Source of the DNA: Patescibacteria group bacterium | Lineage (GTDB): Bacteria > Patescibacteriota > Doudnabacteria > UBA920 > O2-02-FULL-48-8 | Assembly: GCA_036278915.1 (NCBI GenBank) | Contig: DASUKB010000002.1 | Span: 30,152 to 94,151 of the forward strand | DNA length: 64,000 nucleotides | Reading direction: 5' to 3' | Shown: positions 1,652-48,970 of the stretch, piece after piece | Layout of the letters: every line of letters begins with the position of its first letter | Numbering within the stretch: the stretch's first letter is position 1 | Translations under genes and position numbers: made by a program | Notes under the pieces: generated by a model | The model's database searches: none | Told to the model about the DNA's origin: nothing | Seen by the model: only the letters and a program-made list of their open reading frames with translations

Positions 1652-4531
1652 TTATTTTGCTTTAATTTTTTCTTTCAGCGCCTTGGCCAGGTACTGGCCG
1701 GTGTAGCTTTTGGAAACTTTTGCCACTTCTTCCGGTGTGCCCACGGCCACGATCTCCCCGCCCTTGTGTCCGCCTTCAGGACCCAAATCCACTATCCAGT
1801 CGGCGGATTTGATGACATCCAAGTTGTGTTCAATCACGAGCACGGTATTGCCTTTCTCCACCAGCCGATTCAAAACGCCAAGCAGCCGTTTGACGTCGTC
1901 GAAGTGCAGGCCAGTGGTGGGCTCATCCAATATGTAAAGCGTACGTCCGGTGGAGGCGCGCGAAAGTTCTGTGGCGAGCTTAATGCGCTGAGCTTCGCCG
2001 CCGGAGAGCGTAGTCGCCTGCTGGCCAAGGTGCATATAGCCCAAGCCGACCAGGGACAAAGTTTCCAGTTTGCGCGCAATCAGCGGAACGGCGCGGAAAA
2101 AAATGTGCGCCTCGTCCACTGTCATTTCCAGAACGTCAGAAATAGTTTTGCCTTTGTAGTGGATGTCCAAGGCTTCTTTGTTGTAGCGTTTGCCTTTACA
2201 TTCCTCGCAGGTGACGTAAACATCGGGCAAAAAGTGCATCTCTATTTTTATAACGCCATCGCCGCCGCAAACTTCGCAGCGCCCGCCTTTGACGTTGAAA
2301 CTGAATCGCCCGGCTTTGTACCCGCGCATTTTGGCTTCGGGAGTAGACGCAAACAGATCGCGTATATAGGTAAAGACTCCGGTGTAAGTGGCGGGGTTGG
2401 AGCGGGGCGTACGTCCGATAGGACTTTGGTCAATGTCTATGACCTTGTCTATATTTTCTATGCCGAGCAGTTTCTTGTGCGCGCCAGCCGCGTCTTTGGC
2501 ATTATAGAAATAAGCAGACAATGCCTTGGCAAGAATTTCGTTCATAAGCGTGGATTTGCCGGAGCCGGACACGCCAGTGAGCACGACAAATTTGCCCAAT
2601 GGAATATCCAAGTCCACGTTTTTGAGATTGTGCTCGGTGGCGCCTACGATGCGGATAGTCTTGCCATTGCCGCGTCGGCGCGTGGATGGCACGGGGATGT
2701 TTGCATTACCCGAAAGATACTGGCCGGTGAGCGACTTCGGGTCTTTGGCAATTTCCGAAGGCGTGCCCTCGGCCACCAGTTCCCCGCCGTGCTTGCCCGC
2801 GCCCGGACCGATGTCTATAACCCAGTCCGAGGCCTCTATGGTTTCCTGGTCATGCTCAACCACGATGACCGTGTTGCCCAGGTCGCGCAAATTTTTGAGA
2901 GTCTTAAGCAGGCGGTCGTTGTCGCGCTGGTGCAGACCGATGGATGGCTCATCCAATATGTACAGCACGCCGGTAAGGCCGGAACCGATTTGCGTGGCCA
3001 GGCGAATGCGCTGCGCTTCGCCGCCGGAGAGCGTGTCCGCGCTGCGGTCCAAAGTTAAATAATTTAAACCCACGTCCTGCAAAAATTTCAAGCGGGCCAC
3101 AATTTCTTTGAGCACCTGGTGCGAGATTTTGGCATCTTTTTCGGAAAATTTCTTGGGCAAGCCGGCGGCAAACGAGACTGTGTCGTCTATGGACAGCGAA
3201 GCCACATCAATAATTGATTTGTCGTCTATGGTCACGGCCAAAAATTCCGGCTTAAGCCTCATGCCTTTGCAAGTCGGGCAAGTTTTAACGCGCATATACT
3301 GTTCAATTTCCCCGCGCATATAGTCCGAATCCGTCTCGCGGTACTTGCGCATAAGGTTTGGAATGACGCCTTCAAAAGACGTAAACCGTTCGTAGCCGGA
3401 CTCGTCCTGTAGTTTAACTTTTTGGTCGCCGGTGCCATAGAGGATGGCGTCCACGACTTTCTTGGGCAAATCCCGCACCGGAGCATTTATGGAAAATCCA
3501 TAGTTTTTGGCAACTGAATCCAAAACCCTCATATACCAGCTCATGCGCGAAGTTGTTTTGCTCCAGGGACGCACTGCGCCCTCGGCCAGGGTCAGTTTTG
3601 GATTCGGGATCACCAGTTCCGGCACGATCTCAAGCCGGGTGCCCAAACCAGTGCAGTCGGTGCAGGCTCCGTGCGGCGAATTAAATGAAAAATTCCGCGG
3701 GTTGAGTTCCGGCAAGCTCATGTGCCCCAGTGGACAGGCAAAATTTGAGGACAAGAGGATTTCTTCATCTGTTTTATGACTTTTAACTTCTGCCTTCTCA
3801 CTTCTGACTTCCGACTTCTGAATTATTACCGTGTCATTGCCCAGATCCAAAGCCGTCTCCAGCGAATCGGCCAGGCGGGCGCGGTCGGATGAATCAAGGC
3901 TGATGCGATCCACGACAATTTCTATGGAATGTTTTTTCTTCTTATCAATATTGATGCGCAAAGCTTCCGACAAATCCATGACGGTGCCGTCAAAACGGAC
4001 GCGGGTGTAACCGGTTTTGCGCGCCTCCTCCAGGAGATGCTTGTGTTCGCCCTTCTGGTCGGAGATGACGGGTGAAAGGATTACAATTTTGGAATCCTTG
4101 GGCCAAGACAAAACCTGGTCTACCATTTGCGTCACGCTCATGCCCGCGATGCGCCGGCCGCAGACTGGACAGTGTGGCACGCCCACGCGCGCGTACAGCA
4201 GGCGCAGGTAGTCATAAATTTCCGTAACCGTACCCACGGTGGAACGGGGGTTGTGAGAAGCGCTCTTTTGGTCTATGGAAATGGCCGGCGATAAACCTTC
4301 AATCTTGTCTACGTCTGGCTTGTCCATAAGCCCGAGGAACTGCCGGGCGTAAGCCGACAAGCTCTCCACGTAACGGCGCTGGCCCTCGGCGTATATGGTA
4401 TCAAACGCCAGGGAAGATTTGCCTGAACCCGAAAGACCCGTGATGACCACGAGCTTGTCTCTAGGAATATCCACATCAATATTTTTGAGGTTGTGTACCC
4501 GCGCCCCGCGGACCACGATCTTGTCGGTCAT
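1652..4531 (-). CDS. uvrA: Excinuclease ABC subunit A (UvrA), 959 aa
   Basis: Two ABC ATPase modules ([20 protein letters not shown]), zinc-finger Cys clusters and LSGGEAQR signature motifs. Confidence 0.97.
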
Positions 4532-5123: not shown

Positions 5124-7088
5124 ATGCAAAAATTGCTAGCCCAGAAAATCTCCGAGCTGCCGGCCAGACCCGGCGTGTACCGCTTTTATGATCAAGCCGG
5201 TCTTTTACTTTACGTTGGCAAAGCCAATAAGCTCAAAAACCGCGTCTCCTCTTACTTCAAACCAGACTACAGCAGCAACCGCGGGCAGAGAATCGAACTT
5301 ATGATCTCGCAGATTGCGGATTTGGACTACACTGTGGTCCGCAACGAAGTTGAAGCTTTGGTTTTGGAAAATAATTTCATCAAAAACCTCAAACCCAAAT
5401 ACAACGTCCGCATGCGCGACGACAAAAATTATATCTTTCTCAAAATTAATGCCGCAGACGAAATCCCAACTATAGACTACGAACACCAACGGTTAGACAA
5501 ATCCGCCAAATATTTCGGGCCGTACACGTCCTCACTGGCCATAAAAGACACACTGCGCCTGCTGAGGCGTGTATTCCCCTACTGCGCCAATTCCAAAGTA
5601 ACTTCCAAACCCTGTTTTTATTATCACATCGGCAAATGCCCAGGAGTCTGCTTTGGCAAAATTTCAACCGAGGATTATCGTAAAAATTATATCGGCAAAA
5701 TTGTCCAGTTCCTGGAAGGGCGGGAACAGGAAGTCCTCCAGAACCTCAAATCGGAAATGAAAATATTTGCGAAGTCTCGCCAATACGAAAAAGCTGCGCG
5801 GGTGCGGGATCAAATTTTTGCGCTTAATCGCGTCCTGGAGCGGCAAAAATTGGTTTATTCAACCAAAGTCAGCCAGGATGTATTTTCTCTGCATTGCGAA
5901 TCTGTGGCCGTGGTCAATTTATTCATAGTCCGCGAGGGCAAACTCATTCAAAAAGAAAATTTTGTCCTGGAAAACACCCGGCAAGTGCCAGCGGAGGAAA
6001 TTTTGCAAAGTTTTTTGGAAAGATACTACCTAGATGCCACGAATTTGCCGAAAGAAATTTTGGTTCCGTTCTTGATTGATGACACCGAATTAAAAACAGT
6101 TTTTATTGCTCTTGATAATAACCCCTCCCAACCTCCCCTTACATTAAGGGGAGGGGCGACCAAAACCAAACTGCAGCCTGGTTTTGATTTACCCCCTCTT
6201 ATATTAAGAGGGGGTGCGTCAGGCAAGGGTTCGCGGGGGAGTTATTTACCAAAGATCTCTGTGCCTGTGAAAGGCGAACGCCTGAAACTTCTGCAGCTCG
6301 GCACGGAAAATGCCAAACATTATCTGGAGGCCGCATCCGACAAGCACCTCCTGGAAGAGACGCGGCTTTTGGCGTCGCTTAGAGAACTGCAACGGGTGCT
6401 GGAATTGCCGGCCCTCCCCTCGCGTATGGAGTGCTTTGATATTTCAAACATTCAGGGCACAAATGCTGTGGGATCCATGGTCGTGTTTGACTACGCCCGT
6501 CCGAAAAAAAGCGACTATCGCAAATTTAAAATCCAACGGAAGAACACTCCGGACGACTTTGCGATGATGCGCGAGATGCTGGCGAGAAGGTTCAAACATT
6601 CGCTCCCGTCACCCCCGCCCGAACGACCAGGTCGGGCGGGCCTCTCCCCTCACCCCTGGCCTTTGCCTGACCTCATCATTATAGACGGCGGAAAGGGACA
6701 GCTGAGCGCGGCCACGGCGGCAATTTCGAATTCCGAATTTCCTAATTCTAAACAAATTTCTATCATTGGGCTGGCCAAAAGGCTGGAAGAAATATTTTTG
6801 CCCGGCAGAAAAGATCCGATCCGCCTGCCCGATAATTCCCCTGCTTTGTTTTTGCTGCAACGCATCCGCGATGAAGCCCACCGGTTTGCCATCACGTACC
6901 ACCGCAAACTCCGATCTAAATCCGCTGTAACCTCGGTCCTGGACCAAATCTCAGGCATCGGTCCGGCCAAAAAGAAAAAGTTGCTGGACAAATTCGGGTC
7001 AGCAGCCAAACTGAAGACAGCGAGCCTCACGGACATCGCCGAGGTCGTAGGCAGTCGTGTTGCAGAAAAAATAAAGGCCTCATTGTAA
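5124..7088 (+). CDS. uvrC: Excinuclease ABC subunit C (UvrC), about 654 aa, carrying in-frame palindromic insertions
   Basis: GIY-YIG N-terminus (GVYRFYD...LLYVGKA), UvrBC-interaction region, PDLIIIDGGKGQL endonuclease motif and C-terminal (HhH)2 (GIGPAKKKKLL). The ATG at 5124 lies in frame in the long ORF, and a TATAAT sits at 5112..5117, suggesting a leaderless start. Confidence 0.93.
   Translation: MQKLLAQKISELPARPGVYRFYDQAGLLLYVGKANKLKNRVSSYFKPDYSSNRGQRIELMISQIADLDYTVVRNEVEALVLENNFIKNLKPKYNVRMRDDKNYIFLKINAADEIPTIDYEHQRLDKSAKYFGPYTSSLAIKDTLRLLRRVFPYCANSKVTSKPCFYYHIGKCPGVCFGKISTEDYRKNYIGKIVQFLEGREQEVLQNLKSEMKIFAKSRQYEKAARVRDQIFALNRVLERQKLVYSTKVSQDVFSLHCESVAVVNLFIVREGKLIQKENFVLENTRQVPAEEILQSFLERYYLDATNLPKEILVPFLIDDTELKTVFIALDNNPSQPPLTLRGGATKTKLQPGFDLPPLILRGGASGKGSRGSYLPKISVPVKGERLKLLQLGTENAKHYLEAASDKHLLEETRLLASLRELQRVLELPALPSRMECFDISNIQGTNAVGSMVVFDYARPKKSDYRKFKIQRKNTPDDFAMMREMLARRFKHSLPSPPPERPGRAGLSPHPWPLPDLIIIDGGKGQLSAATAAISNSEFPNSKQISIIGLAKRLEEIFLPGRKDPIRLPDNSPALFLLQRIRDEAHRFAITYHRKLRSKSAVTSVLDQISGIGPAKKKKLLDKFGSAAKLKTASLTDIAEVVGSRVAEKIKASL
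6122..6156 (+). repeat. Palindromic element copy 1 inside uvrC: arms cctcccctta / taaggggagg (6132..6141 and 6145..6154, 3-nt loop), preceded by a cccctcccaacc module. It encodes NNPSQPPLTLRGGA.
   Basis: Perfect 10-bp inverted repeat read directly from the sequence; in frame. Confidence 0.8.
6192..6214 (+). repeat. Palindromic element copy 2 inside uvrC: ccccctctta-tat-taagaggggg, encoding LPPLILRGGA.
   Basis: Perfect 10-bp inverted repeat with a 3-nt loop, 37 nt downstream of copy 1; identical arms to the intergenic copy at 11576..11598. Confidence 0.8.
6613..6639 (+). repeat. Third in-frame palindrome inside uvrC: cccgcccga-acgaccagg-tcgggcggg, encoding PPPERPGRAG, within a proline-rich insert before PDLIIIDGG.
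   Basis: Perfect 9-bp inverted repeat; flanking sequence is C-rich (cacccccg, tcccctcacccctgg). Confidence 0.6.
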
Positions 7089-9793: not shown

Positions 9794-11560
9794 ATGAGTA
9801 CGAGCATGCGAATTATGATTAACAAACGCATCGCAGGCGTAGCTGTCCGGGAAAAACCGCAAACACAGCCACAGCCGCAACGAACCGATTCCAAAAATAC
9901 GCTCCGGGTTATTCCCTTGGGCGGTATTGAAGAAGTCGGCGAAAATATGACCATTATGGAGTATGGTGACGATATCCTGGTCATAGACATGGGTCTCGGC
10001 TTCCCCGACGAAACCATGCCCGGGATTGACTACATCATCCCCAACACCAAGTATCTGGAAGATAACAAAAAAAGGATTAAGGGCGTCATCATCACGCACG
10101 GTCACTTGGACCATATCGGCGCCATTCCTTATATCTTGCCCAAAATCGGCGATCCGCCAATTTATACCATGAAGTTAACCGGCGAGCTTATCAAAAAGCG
10201 GCTGGAGGAGTTTCATCTCCTGGGACGTTCCCAAATTCATGAACTAAATAAAGACGACGTACTGACCCTGGGTAATTTCCGCATCCGATTTTTCCGGATC
10301 AACCACAACATTCCCGATGGCGTGGGATTGGCCATCAACACCCCGGCCGGCCTGCTGGTTTACGCGACAGACTGGAAATTCGACCATACGCCTGTAGACG
10401 GACGTCCGACAGAATTTGACAAACTGGCAAAATTTGGCGGCGAAGGCGTGGCGCTTTTGATGAGCGATTCCACCAACGCCGAAAAACCCGGCTATTCCAT
10501 GTCGGAAAAAACTCTTGGCGATACCATTGACCGCATTATGCAGGACGCCAAAGGACGAGTGATCTTTGCCACCTTCTCCACGCTTATTTCCCGCGTGCAG
10601 CAGGTCATAGATGCCGCGTACAAGACCAACCGCAAAATCGTGGTTACCGGCAGATCTCTTGTAAATAACGTGGAAATCTGTCTGGCCACCAATTACCTCA
10701 AAATGCCGGCCAAGGGCATGATCATAAAAATGGAACAGGCCCGCAAACTTCCGGACAACCAGGTCGTGATCCTCACCACCGGGTCGCAAGGCGAAGAGGC
10801 TTCGGCTTTGGCCCGCATTGCGCGCAATGAGCACAAGACCATAGAAATTAAGAAGGGCGACACCTGCGTGGTGTCTGCATCTCCTATTCCGGGAAACGAA
10901 CGCGCGATTTCTTCCATACTTTCTTCTCTAGCCCGCCAAGGCGCCAAGGTTTTGTACCAGAAAATTCTGGACATCCACACCTCGGGCCACGCCTACCAGG
11001 AAGATTTGAAGCTGATGATTTCCCTGACCAAGCCCAAGTACTTTATGCCGATTCACGGCGAGCATCACATGCTTTTGGCTCACTCGGAATTGGCCAAGGC
11101 TGTGGGCGTGCCGGACCAGAACATCTTCACTCTGGACAACGGCCAGCAGCTGGAACTCACGGACCGTGGCGTGCGCGTGGCAGATGCCAAAATCCCCACT
11201 GGCTACGTGTTCGTGGACGGGCTCGGCGTGGGTGACGTAGGCGAAGTCGTATTGCGCGATCGCCAGGTTATGAGCAAAGACGGTATGTTTGTCATCATTA
11301 TGACTATCGATAAAAGAACCGGTAAACTTACTCAACAGCCTGACATTATTTCGCGCGGCTTCATCTACATGAAAGGTTCCGAAGATCTGCTTAAGGAAGT
11401 CAAGCACGAAGTGCGCAAAGTCGTGGAGACCAAATCCAAAGGGCCATCTGAACCCAACTGGGCGTTCATCCGCTCGGAAGTCCGCGATTCAGTCGGCGAA
11501 TTCCTGTTCCAAAGGACCGAACGTCGTCCAATGATTCTTCCAGTTATAATTGAGGTCTAA
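9794..11560 (+). CDS. rnj: Ribonuclease J (metallo-beta-lactamase / beta-CASP RNase)
   Basis: HGHLDH motif (ITHGHLDHIGAIPYI), beta-CASP region and C-terminal domain; about 35-aa N-terminal extension, so the true start may be an internal Met (9806). Confidence 0.9.
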   Translation: MSTSMRIMINKRIAGVAVREKPQTQPQPQRTDSKNTLRVIPLGGIEEVGENMTIMEYGDDILVIDMGLGFPDETMPGIDYIIPNTKYLEDNKKRIKGVIITHGHLDHIGAIPYILPKIGDPPIYTMKLTGELIKKRLEEFHLLGRSQIHELNKDDVLTLGNFRIRFFRINHNIPDGVGLAINTPAGLLVYATDWKFDHTPVDGRPTEFDKLAKFGGEGVALLMSDSTNAEKPGYSMSEKTLGDTIDRIMQDAKGRVIFATFSTLISRVQQVIDAAYKTNRKIVVTGRSLVNNVEICLATNYLKMPAKGMIIKMEQARKLPDNQVVILTTGSQGEEASALARIARNEHKTIEIKKGDTCVVSASPIPGNERAISSILSSLARQGAKVLYQKILDIHTSGHAYQEDLKLMISLTKPKYFMPIHGEHHMLLAHSELAKAVGVPDQNIFTLDNGQQLELTDRGVRVADAKIPTGYVFVDGLGVGDVGEVVLRDRQVMSKDGMFVIIMTIDKRTGKLTQQPDIISRGFIYMKGSEDLLKEVKHEVRKVVETKSKGPSEPNWAFIRSEVRDSVGEFLFQRTERRPMILPVIIEV

Positions 11561-11568
11561 TCGTAACT

Positions 11569-11606
11569 CCCCCTACCCCCTCTTATCCTAAGAGGGGGTT
11601 TTGTTT
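11569..11606 (+). repeat. Intergenic copy of the palindromic element: ctcccccta-ccccctctta-tcc-taagaggggg followed by TTTTGTTT. It doubles as the terminator-like hairpin after rnj.
   Basis: Arms at 11576..11585 and 11589..11598 match uvrC copy 2 exactly. The 5' module cccccta-ccccctctt parallels the valS copy cccccaa-ccccctctt. Confidence 0.7.
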
Positions 11607-11727
11607 CAATGCGGCCGCACGAAAAATAGGTTTGCGTATACGCAAACTCAATACTGAATTAAAAAATAAGAGCTACGGGTCGGTTTATCCCGACACCCGG
11701 AAAAATGTCGTCGGAATTTGACGCGAG
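11607..11727 (+). repeat. Left copy of a roughly 45-nt direct repeat (caatgcggccgcacgaaaaat ... gtcgtcggaatttgacgcgag), interrupted by a 73-nt insert (11628..11700) bounded by a gaaaaat duplication
   Basis: The uninterrupted right copy at 12549..12590 reads caatgcggccgcatgaaaaat-tta-gtcagaattcgacgcgag. The insert carries a 16-bp perfect palindrome tttgcgtatacgcaaa (11631..11646). Confidence 0.6.
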
Positions 11728-11866
11728 CTTATGTGTTGCGAAGAATGTTTTTCCCTTCGCAAATATAAGGCAGTTAGCGAGCAAGAAATTCCGGGACATT
11801 TTTCCCGTGTCGCCAATTTTTGGCGCCACCTTTTGTTTGGCACAAAAGGTGGCAAAATGGTCAACG

Positions 11867-11915
11867 CAAACTCAATAGTTAAGTATTGAGTTAAAAAATA
11901 AGACCGCGAGGTCCG
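11867..11915 (-). terminator. Intrinsic terminator for the small Cys-rich gene pair. On the minus strand it reads ccgcgcggtcctaacggacctcgcgg followed by TCTTATTTTTT.
   Basis: GC hairpin plus U-run immediately after the stop at 11916. The module acgcaaactcaata...ttaaaaaataaga also occurs at 11641..11675. Confidence 0.5.
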
Positions 11916-12250
11916 TTAGGACCGCGCGGCTTTCTTCTTCGGGTGGATCTTGCCTGAGTTGCTGTACATGAGTTTGCAGGACTTGCAGTACGTCTCGGTA
12001 CTGACTACGGCTCTCATCGGATTCGAACCACCGATACGCATCTCGTATATACTCACAGCCAATTCGTACTCAGTCCGAGTGACTCGTACCACTTCTCCGC
12101 CACAACTGCATTCGCCCACTATCTTGCGAGTGGTGCGTGGCTTGTAGCGCTCCTCTTCTTCTTTACGGCGCTTCTCCGCTGCTTTCCGAAACGCAGCATC
12201 GAATTTACCTTGAAGCTGTTTCAGTACGTCCTCAGGCAACTTCTTAGGCA
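11916..12250 (-). CDS. Hypothetical small basic zinc-ribbon protein (about 111 aa from MPKKLPEDV; CSCGG...CKSC)
   Basis: Probable start at the ATG at 12248..12250, preceded by GAGGAGG and overlapping the upstream ORF stop (TGATG). The ORF track extends it to 12287 with an alternative start. Confidence 0.45.
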
Positions 12251-12417
12251 TCACTCCTCCTCGGGATTGCAGGTCGGGCACAGGCACTCAACTTCTTTCC
12301 AAATCATAGGATCCACGGAAATTATTGCCGGAACCGTGAAGGAACAGTTGTGCTCGCCTTCCTCACAACTGTCGCATATGGCCGACTCAATTGCCGACAG
12401 TACCTCAGCTTTGTGCA
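12250..12417 (-). CDS. Hypothetical Cys-rich mini-protein, 55 aa (MHKAEVLSAIESAICDSCEEGEHNCSFTVPAIISVDPMIWKEVECLCPTCNPEEE)
   Basis: Below the 60-aa cut-off of the ORF track. It has 7 Cys in CxxC-like pairs, and its stop overlaps the start of the downstream gene, suggesting translational coupling. A 20-aa uORF with a strong AAGGAGGGGG SD lies just upstream. Confidence 0.35.
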
Positions 12418-12548
12418 TCACAATCCACTCCCTCGTGGGCTGGCCATTTTTCGCTCATTACTCTCATGCCCCCTCCTTGCGATTGAGGTAATCCTAACCA
12501 ATATTCCAGTTTGCTGTCAAAGCCCACCTTTCAAGGAAGATTTCTTTT

Positions 12549-12590
12549 GTTTTGGTCTCAATGCGGCCGCATGAAAAATTTAGTCAGAAT
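12549..12590 (+). repeat. Right copy of the roughly 45-nt direct repeat (caatgcggccgcatgaaaaat-tta-gtcagaattcgacgcgag) bracketing the Cys-rich gene pair
   Basis: Near-identical to 11607..11627 plus 11707..11727 (2-3 mismatches). Confidence 0.6.
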
Positions 12591-12687
12591 TCGACGCGAG
12601 ACGATAGGTTGCGACTTTCTTTTGATTTCTTTTCTTTCCTAGAAAGAAAAGAAATAGGAACATAAAGGAGTTATTGATTAAGTAAAA

Positions 12688-13689
12688 ATGAGCTATAATA
12701 TACCCATGTCAAAAGAACGGATTGTTTCGGGAATCCAACCCACAGGTGAACTGCATATAGGCAACTACTTGGGCAGCCTCAAGAACTTTGTCGAACTTCA
12801 GGACAAATTTGAGTGCTTCTTTTTTGTCGCAGATTTACATTCTTTGACCGAAGACTTTGAGCCTGGCAAAGCCAAAGCAGAACAGATCCGCAATTTGGTC
12901 AAAACAATGCTCGCCGCAGGCCTCAACCCGGATAAGTGCACGATATTTATACAATCCCAAGTCCCTGCCCACACGGAACTGGCTTGGATTTTCAATACCC
13001 TGCTTCCCATGGGCGAACTGGAACGCATGACCCAGTACAAAGACAAGGCCGCCAGGCAATCAACAAACGTAAACGTGGGACTTTTCGATTACCCGGTGCT
13101 CCAGGCCGCAGACATTTTAATTTATAAACCAGCTTACGTGCCGGTGGGACACGACCAAATGCAGCATCTGGAACTGACCAACACACTCGCCCGCAAATTC
13201 AACCACAAGTTCGGCGAAACTTTCACAGAAATCAAGCCTTACGTCAGTAAGCCGGTGCGGGTAATGAGTTTGTCCGATCCGACCCGCAAGATGAGTAAAT
13301 CCGAACCTGGATCTTTCATAAATATGTTTGATACACCGGAAGAAATCCACAAAAAATTATCCCGCGCAGTCACTGCCACTGATGCGCCGGAAGGTGAGAT
13401 GCCCAAAGGCGTGAAGAATTTATTTGACCTCTTGCTTGAATTCGGAAAGCAGGAGGCGTATGATGATTTCATCAAGCAATACCAAAGCGGCAGCATCAAA
13501 TACGCGGAATTGAAAGAAGCCCTAAGCCAGGCAATTGCCCTATATTTCCAACCAATGCGCGAAATGCGGAAACAGTTAGACACACAAACCAAGCAGATTG
13601 ACCAGATTATTACCGAAGGCAGCCGCAAAGCCTGCGCTTTTGCCCAATCGACAATTAACGAAGTGAAAGCAAAAATAGGGTTGGTCTAA
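12688..13689 (+). CDS. trpS: Tryptophanyl-tRNA synthetase
   Basis: Class I motifs (GELHIGNYLG ~ HIGH; KMSKSEPGS ~ KMSKS), 333 aa. Confidence 0.92.
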   Translation: MSYNIPMSKERIVSGIQPTGELHIGNYLGSLKNFVELQDKFECFFFVADLHSLTEDFEPGKAKAEQIRNLVKTMLAAGLNPDKCTIFIQSQVPAHTELAWIFNTLLPMGELERMTQYKDKAARQSTNVNVGLFDYPVLQAADILIYKPAYVPVGHDQMQHLELTNTLARKFNHKFGETFTEIKPYVSKPVRVMSLSDPTRKMSKSEPGSFINMFDTPEEIHKKLSRAVTATDAPEGEMPKGVKNLFDLLLEFGKQEAYDDFIKQYQSGSIKYAELKEALSQAIALYFQPMREMRKQLDTQTKQIDQIITEGSRKACAFAQSTINEVKAKIGLV

Positions 13690-14199: not shown

Positions 14200-15585
14200 T
14201 TATCCTATAAATCGCAGGACCTCTTCCGTCGCAGATAGCAAGACTTTGGGATTTTTGGCTTCAACATTGGTACGGATGAGCGGTTCGGTATTGGATCCGC
14301 GGATGTTTGCCCGCCAGTCCTGCCCTTCTATGGAGATGCCATCGGTTTTGTCGAGTTTGACTTTGGGGTCCGCGGCAAAGTGCTGTTCAATTTTTTCAAG
14401 CAGAGGTTTGACCTGTTCTAGGTCAGAAGCTTTCGTATTGATTTCGCCGGACACCGGGTAATTTTCAAAATATTCATCGAACAGTTCAGACACACGCACA
14501 CCTGCCTGTGAGACAATCTCAAGCATGATCAAAAATGGTATGAGACCGTTGTCGGATGAGAAATAATCGCGGAAATAATAATGACCGGAAGTTTCCGAGG
14601 CAAACACGGCATTGTCTTTGCGCATTTCGGGGTTAAAGTACGCCCGCCCCGCTTTGATAGCCATTGTTTTGCCGCCAGAGGCTTTGACTTTGTCTTCTAT
14701 AGCCCACCGCAGACGAATGTCGTGGACAATAGTTGCTCCCGGCTCGCGTTTGCAAAAATATTCGGAAAGCACAGCGCTCACATAATACGGCGGCAGAAAT
14801 CTGCCATTTTCGTCGAAGAAAAAGCAGCGGTCCGCGTCCGCGTCCCAGGCCACACCCAGATCCGGATGTTCTTTTTGAATAACCTCTTTGGTTTCTTGCT
14901 GGTTTTGGACCTGCAAAGGGTCAGGCTGGCCTTTGGGAAAATTGCCATCCGGGTTTTCGTTGAGTTCAATAAGTTTAACAGGCAAATTCATGTGCGCCAC
15001 CTGCGTGAGCGCCAGGCCGAACATGGCATTGGCCACAACTTTAAGCGGCTTTCCGCCAGAGGCGGATCCGCCTTTGGCGGAAATTTTTGCCACGTCCACA
15101 AATGACAGACATTTTTTGATATAATCATCGGCGATGTTTTTGGACGAAACAGTTCCAGGCTGATCGGCTTTGTATTCGTAACCCATGATGACCGAATTCT
15201 TGATATCACCAATGCCAGTGTCGCCGGAAATGGGAATTGCCTGCTCGCGGGTAAGCTTCATGCCGTTGTACTCTTTGGGATTGTGCGAAGCGGAAATTAT
15301 AATACCGCCGTCATAGCCATAATTGGCCACGGCAAAGTAGAGCATGTCCGTAGAGATCATGCCAATGTCCACGACATTTACCCCGTGGTCTACCAGACCC
15401 TGCTTGGCTGCCTCAAACAGCGCCGGGCTTGAGGTGCGTACGTCAAACCCCAGGGCTACTGTTTTGGGATTGAGGAATTTGGCATAGGCTTGCGCAATGC
15501 CGTAGGCCAGCTCTTCGTTGATTTCCGACGGGTAAATCCCGCGGATATCGTAAGCCTTGAAAATTTTTGGATCAACTGCACTCAT
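14200..15585 (-). CDS. Phosphoglucomutase / phosphomannomutase (alpha-D-phosphohexomutase family)
   Basis: Active-site serine loop ISASHNPKEYNGMK and four-domain PGM/PMM layout, 461 aa. Confidence 0.88.
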   Translation of the reverse strand: MSAVDPKIFKAYDIRGIYPSEINEELAYGIAQAYAKFLNPKTVALGFDVRTSSPALFEAAKQGLVDHGVNVVDIGMISTDMLYFAVANYGYDGGIIISASHNPKEYNGMKLTREQAIPISGDTGIGDIKNSVIMGYEYKADQPGTVSSKNIADDYIKKCLSFVDVAKISAKGGSASGGKPLKVVANAMFGLALTQVAHMNLPVKLIELNENPDGNFPKGQPDPLQVQNQQETKEVIQKEHPDLGVAWDADADRCFFFDENGRFLPPYYVSAVLSEYFCKREPGATIVHDIRLRWAIEDKVKASGGKTMAIKAGRAYFNPEMRKDNAVFASETSGHYYFRDYFSSDNGLIPFLIMLEIVSQAGVRVSELFDEYFENYPVSGEINTKASDLEQVKPLLEKIEQHFAADPKVKLDKTDGISIEGQDWRANIRGSNTEPLIRTNVEAKNPKVLLSATEEVLRFIG

Positions 15586-27695: not shown

Positions 27696-29891
<2,196 letters not shown>

Positions 29892-46649: not shown

Positions 46650-48970
46650 TTAATCTTTTCCATTTCATTCCAATTGTCCCCGGCTTTGACCTCGGCCACA
46701 ATTGGGACCTTCAATTTGAATACCGATTCCATAATTTCTTTAATCTTGGGCGCGTACTGTTTGATCTTATCGGCTTTGATTTCGAACACCAGTTCGTCGT
46801 GCACCTGCAGCAGCATCTTGCAGTCGTTATCGGTCACCTTTTTGTCAATTTCAAGCATGGCCATTTTGATGATGTCCGCAGACAGCGACTGGATGGGCGC
46901 ATTTACAGCCTGCCGCTCGGCCGCTGCGCGAATGGCAAAGATGGGCGAATTGATATCCGGATAAAAACGAAGTCGCCCAAGCAAATTTTTTGTGTGGCCC
47001 TTGCTGTGTGCTTGCTCAATTTGTCTATCAATATACTTTTTGAGTCCGGCAAAGACCTGGTAGTAGCGTTTAATGAAGTCCGCGGCCTCGGCCCGCGCCA
47101 TTTGCGAACGCGACGACAGGCCAAACGCGGACACGCCATAGAGCACTGAAAAATTTATAGTCTTGGCGTCGCGCCGCTGGTCAGGTGTTACCTGCGACTC
47201 CATGCAATTGAAAATCCTCGCGGCAGTGGCGGCGTGGAAATCCTTGCCAGATTTAAAAATTTTAAGCATTTCGGCATCCCCCGAAAGCGACGCGGCAATC
47301 CGCAGTTCAATCTGCGAATAGTCCACGGACAAAAGTTTCCAGCCGGCATCGGCGATAAATGCTTTGCGCACTTCCCGCCCGAGTTCCGTTCGAATGGGAA
47401 TGTTCTGCAAATTAGGGTTAGTAGAAGACAGTCGGCCCGTGGCTGCGATTGTCTGGCTGTATGTGGTGTGCACCCGCCCGTCGGCGGACGCTAGCTGCGG
47501 CAGAGCCTCAACGTAAGTTGACTGAAGCTTCGTCAGTTCGCGATATTCAAAAATAAGATCAATTATCGGATGTAGGCCTCGCATTTTTTCCAATTCCCCG
47601 GCGGCAGTCGAGAACCCACCCGACTTTTTATTTTTCTTTAAATTCTCCGCCGGGATATGCAATTTTTCAAACAAAACTTCCTGCAGCTGCTTGGGTGAAG
47701 AGATGTTAAACTCTCCGCCGAGCTTGTGGATTTGCTTGGTGATTTTTTGAATCCGCGTGTTTAACTGCTGCTTAAGTTCTGCCAGCCACAGCAGATCCAG
47801 TTTAACTCCGTAGCCGGTCATGCGAACCAGGACATCCGTGAGCGGCAGTTCAATTTTGGTAAAGATTTCAAGTAATTTTTGGTCCCGCAATTCCTGTTCC
47901 AAAATTTTCCAGTCAGAATTGACCCGGTCTTCATAGTCGCGCATGCCGGGGTTGAGTAGATACGCGGCTAACACGGCCTGCTCTCGGGTTTGTACAAGCT
48001 TTGAGGTTTGAGTGATTACCTTTGGGGGCAAACTTTGGATTTTTTCAGCTGCAGCGGCTGATAATTTTGGCAGTTTGGGAATCAAAGATTTGATATTGAG
48101 CTCGCTGAAAAGTTCCAAAACTTTGGCCTGATCGTAATCGGAAAGTTTGGTAGCTGCAAAATCAAACTCTCCGCCAGAGGCGGATCCGCCTACGGCGGAC
48201 AGACTCCCATTCGTGTCGATGTGCCCCAATTTTTTGGACAGATACGCGTAGTGCTCCCCTGCCGCCAGTTTCCCAAGCACTCCGGCGCGGATGCCTTTGT
48301 CGTTTTTGTGCACCGCGGCATAAAGTTTGTCCAAAGTACTGTAGTTTTGGATAAGCTCGAGTGCGGTTTTCTCACCAATGCCAGGCACCCCCGGAATATT
48401 GTCGGAGGCATCGCCTTTGAGCGCCTTAAGATCCACCCACTGGTCGGGGCGCAGGCCAAATTGTTTTTTCATTTCCGTTTCGTCATAAATAATGACGTCG
48501 GTAAAGCCCTTTTTGAACCGGTAGACTACCGTGTTGGAGTTTATCAACTGCAGCAAATCCATATCGCCAGTGGCGATGATATTTTGGATATCGTTTGGGG
48601 TTTTACGCGAAATTATCCCAAGTAAATCATCTGCCTCAAATCCAGGCTTTTCGTATACTGGCACTTTTAGCGCCTGTAAAATTTCTTTGACCCGAGGGAG
48701 CTGCAGCATCAAATCATCGGGCGTGGGTTTACGGTGCGCCTTGTAGTCGCCAGAAAGTTTGTCACGGAATGTCGGACCGCGCACGTCAAAAGTCACGAGC
48801 ACGTGCGTGGGCTTTTCATCCTCCAAGGCCTTAAGGAACATGCTGAAAAATCCAAAAATCGCGCCTGTGGGAAAGCCGCGGGAATTAGAAAGGTTCGGCA
48901 GCGCGTGGTAGGCGCGGTACAAAAGTGCATGCCCGTCAAACATCAATAATTTCTTTTTAGGTTGAGACAT
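46646..48970 (-). CDS. polA: DNA polymerase I (5'-3' exonuclease plus polymerase; 3'-5' exonuclease region degenerate)
   Basis: FEN N-terminus (LLMFDGHALLYRAYHA), Pol A motifs (DYSQIELR, RRDAKTINFSVLYG, QVHDELV), 774 aa. Confidence 0.93.
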   Translation of the reverse strand: MSQPKKKLLMFDGHALLYRAYHALPNLSNSRGFPTGAIFGFFSMFLKALEDEKPTHVLVTFDVRGPTFRDKLSGDYKAHRKPTPDDLMLQLPRVKEILQALKVPVYEKPGFEADDLLGIISRKTPNDIQNIIATGDMDLLQLINSNTVVYRFKKGFTDVIIYDETEMKKQFGLRPDQWVDLKALKGDASDNIPGVPGIGEKTALELIQNYSTLDKLYAAVHKNDKGIRAGVLGKLAAGEHYAYLSKKLGHIDTNGSLSAVGGSASGGEFDFAATKLSDYDQAKVLELFSELNIKSLIPKLPKLSAAAAEKIQSLPPKVITQTSKLVQTREQAVLAAYLLNPGMRDYEDRVNSDWKILEQELRDQKLLEIFTKIELPLTDVLVRMTGYGVKLDLLWLAELKQQLNTRIQKITKQIHKLGGEFNISSPKQLQEVLFEKLHIPAENLKKNKKSGGFSTAAGELEKMRGLHPIIDLIFEYRELTKLQSTYVEALPQLASADGRVHTTYSQTIAATGRLSSTNPNLQNIPIRTELGREVRKAFIADAGWKLLSVDYSQIELRIAASLSGDAEMLKIFKSGKDFHAATAARIFNCMESQVTPDQRRDAKTINFSVLYGVSAFGLSSRSQMARAEAADFIKRYYQVFAGLKKYIDRQIEQAHSKGHTKNLLGRLRFYPDINSPIFAIRAAAERQAVNAPIQSLSADIIKMAMLEIDKKVTDNDCKMLLQVHDELVFEIKADKIKQYAPKIKEIMESVFKLKVPIVAEVKAGDNWNEMEKIK

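Follow-up and report, generated by a model that had tools for sequence, protein, structure and literature searches.

In attL/attR elements and integron cassettes, direct repeats bracket a short segment that contains small open reading frames (ORFs), and in type II toxin-antitoxin modules two small, translationally coupled genes encode products of opposite charge. Miniature inverted-repeat transposable element (MITE)- and repetitive extragenic palindromic (REP)-like elements are a further class, of intergenic palindromic DNA, and among small prokaryotic zinc-ribbon or zinc-finger proteins there are the YgiT/MqsA N-terminal type (TIGR03831) and the one-domain micro-proteins surveyed in Haloferax (PMC6562870). 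We analyzed a locus that resembles each of these in part. It lies in a 64-kb stretch of DNA (the window) on a 206-kb host contig (GenBank) of a Patescibacteria metagenome-assembled genome, and consists of an operon for two small proteins, p55 and p111 (hypothetical proteins VFX17_02410 and VFX17_02405 in the GenBank annotation), placed between the genes for RNase J (rnj) and tryptophanyl-tRNA synthetase (TrpRS; trpS) with a direct repeat on either side. An earlier note on this stretch had suggested a small mobile or recombined, possibly integrated cassette, such as a phage-derived regulator pair, a toxin-antitoxin-like pair or metal-binding factors. We consider it moderately probable (roughly 0.6) that this is instead a vertically inherited, lineage-specific small operon, long resident between rnj and trpS in this Patescibacteria group, and that the repeats are a local duplication of spacer DNA and not attachment sites.

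The operon lies on the minus strand and is read in the order promoter, leader ORF, p55, p111 and terminator:

12520 to 12491, minus strand: sigma-70-type promoter TTGACA-18-TAGGAT, 10/12 consensus matches, inside the repeat-bracketed segment
12478 to 12472, minus strand: Shine-Dalgarno (SD) sequence AAGGAGG, 4 nt ahead of the 20-codon ORF
12467 to 12405, minus strand: leader ORF of 20 codons (MRVMSEKWPAHEGVDCDAQS), predicted from sequence
12418 to 12251, minus strand: p55, 55 aa, acidic
12251 to 11916, minus strand: p111, 111 aa, basic
11929 to 11893, minus strand: operon terminator T2, a hairpin and T-run, followed by TCTTATTTTTT

By these predicted signals the segment is transcribed as a single unit, from a promoter and to a terminator of its own, and its three ORFs overlap or abut in a manner expected to couple their translation. 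The leader ORF ends 14 nt within p55, out of frame, and the stop codon of p55 and the start codon of p111 overlap as TGATG with one shared base, so that the two proteins are probably made together. A programmed frameshift that would fuse the leader ORF with p55 was also considered and was dropped for want of similarity support. The 5′ stem arm of T2 is built from the final p111 codons (A-A-R-S-stop); the predicted terminator is embedded in the conserved C-terminal codons of p111, and in the relative L081 an analogous hairpin lies over the A-A-K-S-R-stop codons of P0037, the p111 homologue. A AAGGAGGGGG box precedes the p55/p111 coding region both in the leader region of the window and in L081.

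The evidence for long residence comes from relatives. Two close relatives, L001 and L002, were obtained by a genome scan with TrpRS, and the four TrpRS proteins available are 77-82% identical in pairwise comparison (L002 81% and L001 80% to the window). In L081, P0037 is 58% identical to p111 and lies 118 nt from trpS in divergent orientation; similarity between the window and L081 at the DNA level is confined to p111 and the last 16 codons of p55 (11926-12299). In L001, a 62-aa homologue of p55 (p62) is divergent to trpS, and the contig ends 86 nt past p62. P0002, 52% identical to p111, is divergent to trpS on a 3-kb Joint Genome Institute (JGI) contig, with two other small ORFs between them, and P0004, a distant family member (E 1e-19), is found on a 40-kb contig between rnj and trpS with the strands as in the window. 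The gene orders of the window and of the P0004 contig read:

Window: rnj, then p111 and p55 (opposite strand), trpS, a 129-aa ORF, phosphomannomutase (PMM)
P0004 contig: RNase J (588 aa), short-chain dehydrogenase (adh_short), 78 aa, P0004; on the other strand 87 aa, TrpRS, 120 aa, phosphoglucomutase (PGM)/PMM

The genes upstream of p111 differ among the relatives. Given that TrpRS is ~80% identical, that synonymous sites are saturated and that the P0004 lineage is more distant still, occupancy of the rnj-trpS interval by the p111 family is old; from gene order and divergence, a p111-family gene has been in this interval since well before these lineages diverged. Comparison of p111 with P0037 gave nonsynonymous (pN) and synonymous (pS) differences of 0.30 and 0.80, which indicates that p111 is under purifying selection; for trpS the values were 0.13 and 0.75. 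The GC content of the operon (0.51-0.54) is native when set against that of the flanks (0.45-0.55). The locus is nevertheless variable: the operon is absent in L002, where trpS follows rnj directly across an 80-nt spacer that consists of a terminator followed by a promoter. This absence is read as a loss because four other lineages carry the gene at the locus. A metagenome scan with TrpRS added no close relative (best match 55%), and p55/p111 homologues were found at none of the loci that it returned; a metagenome scan with the p111 alignment yielded no confirmed loci.

The repeats and the structured spacer that contains one of them are made up as follows, strand being given where it applies:

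11599..11627: left half of direct repeat copy A (TTTTGTTTCAATGCGGCCGCACGAAAAAT), 26/29 (90%) identical to 12551-12579
11700..11741: right half of copy A, 33/42 (79%) identical to 12573-12614
12551..12614: direct repeat copy B, intact, 64 nt, between the divergent operon and trpS promoters
11628..11699, minus strand: 72-nt insert (T1) splitting copy A, a diverged duplicate of the operon terminator module
11630-11647: perfect hairpin inside the 72-nt insert
11691..11812: imperfect palindrome of 122 nt (aligned to its own reverse complement, E 2e-4), predicted to fold as a long hairpin
11825..11853: perfect 12-bp hairpin GCCACCTTTTGT/ACAAAAGGTGGC, from sequence comparison and the predicted fold

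Two core strings of the repeat occur exactly twice each in the window, the first at 11607-11627 and 12559-12579 (chance expectation 0.01) and the second at 11710-11727 and 12583-12600 (0.18). At its left edge, copy A overlaps with the T-tail of the rnj terminator. Copy B holds a perfect 12-nt palindrome, ATGCGGCCGCAT (12561-12572), of which copy A has an 11/12 version. T1 comprises, in this order, a hairpin, TCTTATTTTTTAA..TTGAGTTTGCGT and a perfect palindrome of 18 nt (GTTTGCGTATACGCAAAC), and its segment 11640-11685 aligns with 11864-11917 in the T2 region (70% identity, one gap of 8 nt, E 6e-4). The heptamer GAAAAAT flanks the insert on either side in copy A (11621-11627 and 11700-11706) but occurs singly in copy B, which resembles an insertion with a short flanking duplication. 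In the 122-nt palindrome, the left arm covers the right half of copy A, and the opposite arm carries this motif a third time, in inverted orientation, which makes three copies of the right-half motif overall, one of them inverted; the apex hairpin is TTGCGAAG..CTTCGCAA. Folding of the spacer RNA 11600-11930 (331 nt) against shuffled controls gave z = -7.95.

Much of this anatomy had already been described correctly in the earlier note. The direct repeats bracketing the segment are real, with the first copy interrupted and the second intact, while their length is ~64 nt and not 45, and the interval given for the second copy (12549..12590) lay 10 nt too low. The short ORF behind a strong SD sequence, the dedicated terminator and the translationally coupled, basic zinc-ribbon protein of about 111 aa were all recovered; p55 is, as described, a Cys-rich protein of 55 aa on the minus strand, with six Cys in place of the seven reported.

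Under the reading that we favor, a 64-nt piece starting in the T-tail of the rnj terminator would have been duplicated, its two copies now standing on either side of the operon. A copy of the operon's own terminator module would then have entered copy A, leaving a flanking duplication of 7 nt, and half of copy A duplicated in inverted orientation, giving the 122-nt palindrome. Local duplication or template switching in this one lineage would have produced all of these repeats, and the product would be an unusually structured spacer (334 nt) between the convergent rnj and p111 genes. The single near-consensus promoter would drive the leader ORF, p55 and p111, and the hairpin would end the transcript. 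The spacer repeats would serve at most as back-up terminators or insulators, on the rnj-p111 side and between the operon and trpS promoters, and L002, with rnj next to trpS, would represent a lineage that has lost the operon.

Architecturally, p111 has a K/E/R-rich helix (residues 7-35), a zinc ribbon with four Cys (C48, C50, C89 and C92) and a basic tail. In a profile search, 34 p111-family clusters were recovered from 1.84 billion representatives, and in an alignment of 31 members the four Cys are invariant and the N-terminus is rich in Lys/Glu/Arg. For the first Cys pair, p111 and its close homologues have CxC where other members have CxxC, and the motif GDPMxMIIGPGSRNQ, common between the Cys pairs in the family, has diverged to MRIGGSNPMR in p111. 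AlphaFold2 (AF2) with the family alignment gave a model with a predicted local distance difference test (pLDDT) score of 87.5, in which a long helix (7-35) precedes three long strands, with the Cys pairs at the ends of strands 39-47, 53-64 and 79-89. Two invariant Cys pairs separated by β-strands are as expected of a zinc ribbon, and in this respect, as in its size and basic flanks, p111 is like the YgiT/MqsA-type and Haloferax proteins. Sequence searches of Pfam, PHROGs, NCBIfam, PADLOC and PDB with p55, p111 and the 31 family members returned nothing above threshold, in agreement with the earlier statement that neither protein matches a recognized family. The nearest named type is the YgiT/MqsA-type zinc finger, reached below threshold: TIGR03831 did not match p111, and two distant members reached 15.4 and 14.8 bits, the cut-off being 20.2 (E 0.017-0.026). 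An hhalign comparison of the family with an approximate E. coli MqsA sequence gave 25% probability and serves as a lead only. By its alignments and searches, p111 is a member of an undescribed zinc-ribbon family with no Pfam, PDB or phage match. The helix, zinc ribbon and basic tail suggest that it would be a zinc-dependent nucleic-acid-binding protein, acting on RNA or DNA.

Elsewhere, members of the family are found in chromosomal housekeeping settings: after secA, ahead of the gene for RNase H, beside thrS and upstream of leuS. No partner gene is conserved across them, and their neighbors are unrelated to one another and to p55. On the L083 contig, P0030, which overlaps a 228-aa gene by 4 nt, is followed by a deoxynucleoside monophosphate (dNMP)-kinase-like gene, a DHHA1 gene and, at a greater distance, a gene that resembles ThyX (RHRR motif). 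Such a set looks phage-like, and part of the wider p111 family may be viral. Genes of the family stand beside aminoacyl-tRNA synthetase genes in three separate lineages, among seven distinct contexts examined: thrS in L150, leuS in L151, and trpS in L081, the window and two JGI contigs. Such adjacency may be due to chance in translation-rich small genomes, or may be a functional hint.

In p55 there are six Cys (15, 18, 25, 45, 47 and 50) together with His2 and His23, arranged as CxxC-x4-H-x-C ... CxCxxC. A word-index search for homologues returned only p55 itself. The 62-aa p62 of L001, found through synteny and tblastn, shows the same Cys/His pattern (pairwise BLASTP E 5e-5), and comparison of the two gave pN 0.53 and pS 0.85. 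L081 retains just the last 16 codons, as a TTG-started mini-ORF (MKRVLCKCPTCHSKEE) whose stop overlaps the start of P0037 as TAATG; its counterpart in the window is ...KEVECLCPTCNPEEE with TGATG. These features suggest that p55 may be a dispensable, fast-evolving accessory of p111, either a metal-binding partner or a translational leader. The metal-binding character proposed earlier for both Cys-rich proteins is probably correct, to judge from their Cys patterns. As a long shot, p111 might found an unrecognized zinc-ribbon family tied to the translation or RNA-processing machinery of small-genome bacteria, for example as a ribosome-, tRNA- or synthetase-associated factor, kept by rnj/trpS in one lineage and by thrS and leuS in others, with p55 as a partner that either delivers metal or inhibits, and the duplicated palindromic repeat as its operator.

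Were the segment an integrated or excisable cassette, the repeats would be attL/attR-like sites or recombination substrates, the operon would move as a unit and L002 would be the empty site. A short segment with small ORFs that is bracketed by direct repeats, the presence of its own promoter and terminator, and the unoccupied interval of L002 all fit such a cassette, although having its own promoter also sets the segment apart from attL/attR elements and integron cassettes. However, the two repeats are only 79-90% identical over 64 nt and copy A is disrupted; the segment is too small to accommodate a recombinase, and no integrase or recombinase gene lies within or adjoining it, where the neighbors are rnj, trpS, tRNA-Leu and PMM (the search for recombinases covered the rnj-trpS spacer and these neighbors). 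No further copy of the repeat, or of the spacer motifs that accompany it, was found in the window or among 156 fetched loci, which include ~7 kb more of the same genome, and a viral contig collection gave 0 matches. In place of the patchy, varying positions and foreign composition of mobile elements, the segment has a constant position across diverged relatives (L081, L001 and the P0002 and P0004 contigs, four contigs in all, with family genes at 28-58% protein identity) and native GC. The 80-nt spacer of L002 does not contain the single repeat copy expected at an empty site; this negative is weak owing to a divergence at which synonymous substitution (dS) is saturated. The left edge of copy B (TTTTGTTTTGGT) does match the T-tail after the L002 rnj terminator at 12/12 positions, but this is given little weight because it is a T-rich terminator tail (E 1.3), and no repeat core is shared. 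Old synteny, native GC, the lack of an adjoining recombinase, a repeat that is not dispersed and the repeat-free trpS-side spacers of L081 and L001 thus leave a mobile or phage-derived origin unsupported, and we regard a cassette as unlikely. The note had proposed to look for rnj directly followed by trpS, which is indeed the case in L002, while a homologue of p111 or of p55 was found at this locus in the other four; the search that it suggested for further repeats came back empty, PADLOC and PHROGs gave no match, and the situation that it had itself named as contrary to a cassette, the genes in relatives without flanking repeats, is largely what the relatives present. A toxin-antitoxin-like pair, in which acidic p55 would neutralize basic p111 or the reverse and translational coupling would balance the two, is less likely still. 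Small co-transcribed genes with a stop/start overlap and opposite net charge are shared with type II modules, and the sub-threshold YgiT/MqsA-type matches of the two distant members point the same way; but neither protein matches a known toxin or antitoxin family above threshold in Pfam, NCBIfam, PADLOC or PHROGs, the locus is fixed and syntenic, and the partners are not co-conserved, p55 being cut to its last 16 codons in L081, which weakens the earlier suggestion.

The repeats could alternatively be regulatory sites, with the ATGCGGCCGCAT palindrome and the GGAATTT motif as operators, perhaps for p111, that would govern both divergent promoters, of the operon and of trpS, as well as termination or read-through on the rnj side. 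Copy B lies ~30-95 nt upstream of the operon -35 box between two divergent promoters, its palindrome is perfect and nearly so in copy A, the right-half motif recurs, and p111 is basic with a zinc ribbon. Yet the trpS-p111 spacer of L081, which is much shorter (118 nt), and the spacer of L001 are without the motif though the genes are conserved, and copy A is disrupted and lies downstream of the terminator; we hold this reading to be about as improbable as a cassette. Still more doubtful is a small structured RNA gene at 11700-11863, ended by T1, with the repeat as part of the gene or its promoter. The very stable predicted structure, the second terminator T1 at 230 nt after T2 and a plus-strand promoter-like site at 11718-11746 would suit it, while Rfam 15 over 11300-12900 (E <= 10) gave matches at chance level only (best 24.6 bits against a threshold of 59), no homologous sequence for covariation was found in relatives, the minus strand showed no good promoter between T2 and the palindrome, and palindromic duplication explains the structure equally well. 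The 72-nt insert with its 7-nt duplication, the 122-nt palindrome and the several perfect hairpins recall MITE/REP-like elements; in contrast to these, the insert has no terminal inverted repeats, its one related copy in 64 kb is T2, 230 nt away, its source is evidently the operon's own terminator, and no dispersed family was seen in the 64 kb. A tandem duplication of the whole operon followed by decay of one copy was also considered and rejected, since T1 lies inside copy A and not after it.

Several observations weigh against long residence with local spacer duplication. L002 is wholly without the operon even though its RNase J is 93% identical, and the direct repeats flank exactly the variable segment, as excision or integration would leave them. 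Gain and loss in L002 are not polarized, because the four TrpRS are equidistant (star-like). The repeat search covered ~71 kb of this genome, and the P0002 and P0004 contigs are represented by gene tables alone, which give synteny without a repeat comparison. p55 evolves fast (pN/pS ~0.63 against p62), and the leader ORF is a prediction from sequence.

The neighboring genes are tRNA-Leu, RNase J, TrpRS, the 129-aa ORF and PMM, and the features that border the operon on either side are:

9794-11560, plus strand: RNase J (rnj), left neighbor of the operon
11575..11606, plus strand: rnj intrinsic terminator, an 11-bp stem (11575-11599), then TTTGTTT
12625..12655: AT-rich perfect 14-bp hairpin, between copy B and the trpS promoter
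12694-12699, plus strand: trpS -10 box TATAAT, in the segment 12694..12708 with the ATG at 12706
12706, plus strand: ATG, true start of TrpRS (trpS) by orthologue comparison, right neighbor of the operon

The trpS start given by the ORF finder, 12688, is disfavored because it would place the TATAAT box within the gene; with the start at 12706 the rnj-trpS spacer is 1145 nt long, and its only genes are the leader ORF, p55 and p111. A perfect TATAAT 6-8 nt before the trpS ATG, without an SD sequence, is present in the window (12694-12708), L001 (413-428), L002 (~3556-3572) and L081 (1049-1066, minus strand), an arrangement from which the trpS mRNA is probably leaderless in the window and these three relatives. 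The p55 homologue of L001 has a like layout, with TACAAT, 8 nt and ATG. The terminator palindrome ACCCCCTCTTA...TAAGAGGGGGT is common to several genes of the window including rnj (6130-6155, 6190-6215, 11574-11599 and 29497-29522), and similar CCCCTCC/GGAGGGG hairpins occur upstream of trpS in L001. Between p62 and trpS in L001 (300-400) there is also a GC hairpin followed by a T-tail (CCAGGCCGCAGCCTGG TTTTGGTTT) on the plus strand, with no plus-strand gene ahead of it; this orphan terminator lies just upstream of the trpS promoter, and in the window copy B and the AT-rich hairpin have a comparable position.

Elsewhere in the window, a 30-nt double palindrome (TCCGCCnnnGGCGGA twice) occurs at 15052-15081 and 48170-48199, in frame in two unrelated minus-strand genes, with zero chance matches expected. 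It adds SAKGGSASGG in phosphomannomutase and SAVGGSASGG in DNA polymerase I, and every PMM homologue fetched, including the 78%-identical L001 orthologue, is without exactly these 10 residues. In-frame palindromic insertion elements are known from Rickettsia (Rickettsia palindromic elements, RPE), and the 30-nt palindrome, inserted in frame in protein genes, looks like an element of this kind. A streamlined genome seems here to accumulate palindromic and duplicated DNA, in these spacers and in the in-frame palindrome of two genes, an accumulation that may merit separate study.

The main value of this analysis is one of correction, in that a repeat-flanked operon with the look of a cassette in a core region would resolve into old resident genes and local spacer duplications. 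The p111 family is rare and unnamed: it has 34 clusters in the 1.84 billion representatives searched, its fold is predicted with confidence, and none of its relatives has a solved structure. It belongs to a host group in which many of the genes are unassigned, and in this clade p111 keeps a fixed place between RNase J and TrpRS, which makes it a candidate lineage-specific housekeeping factor.

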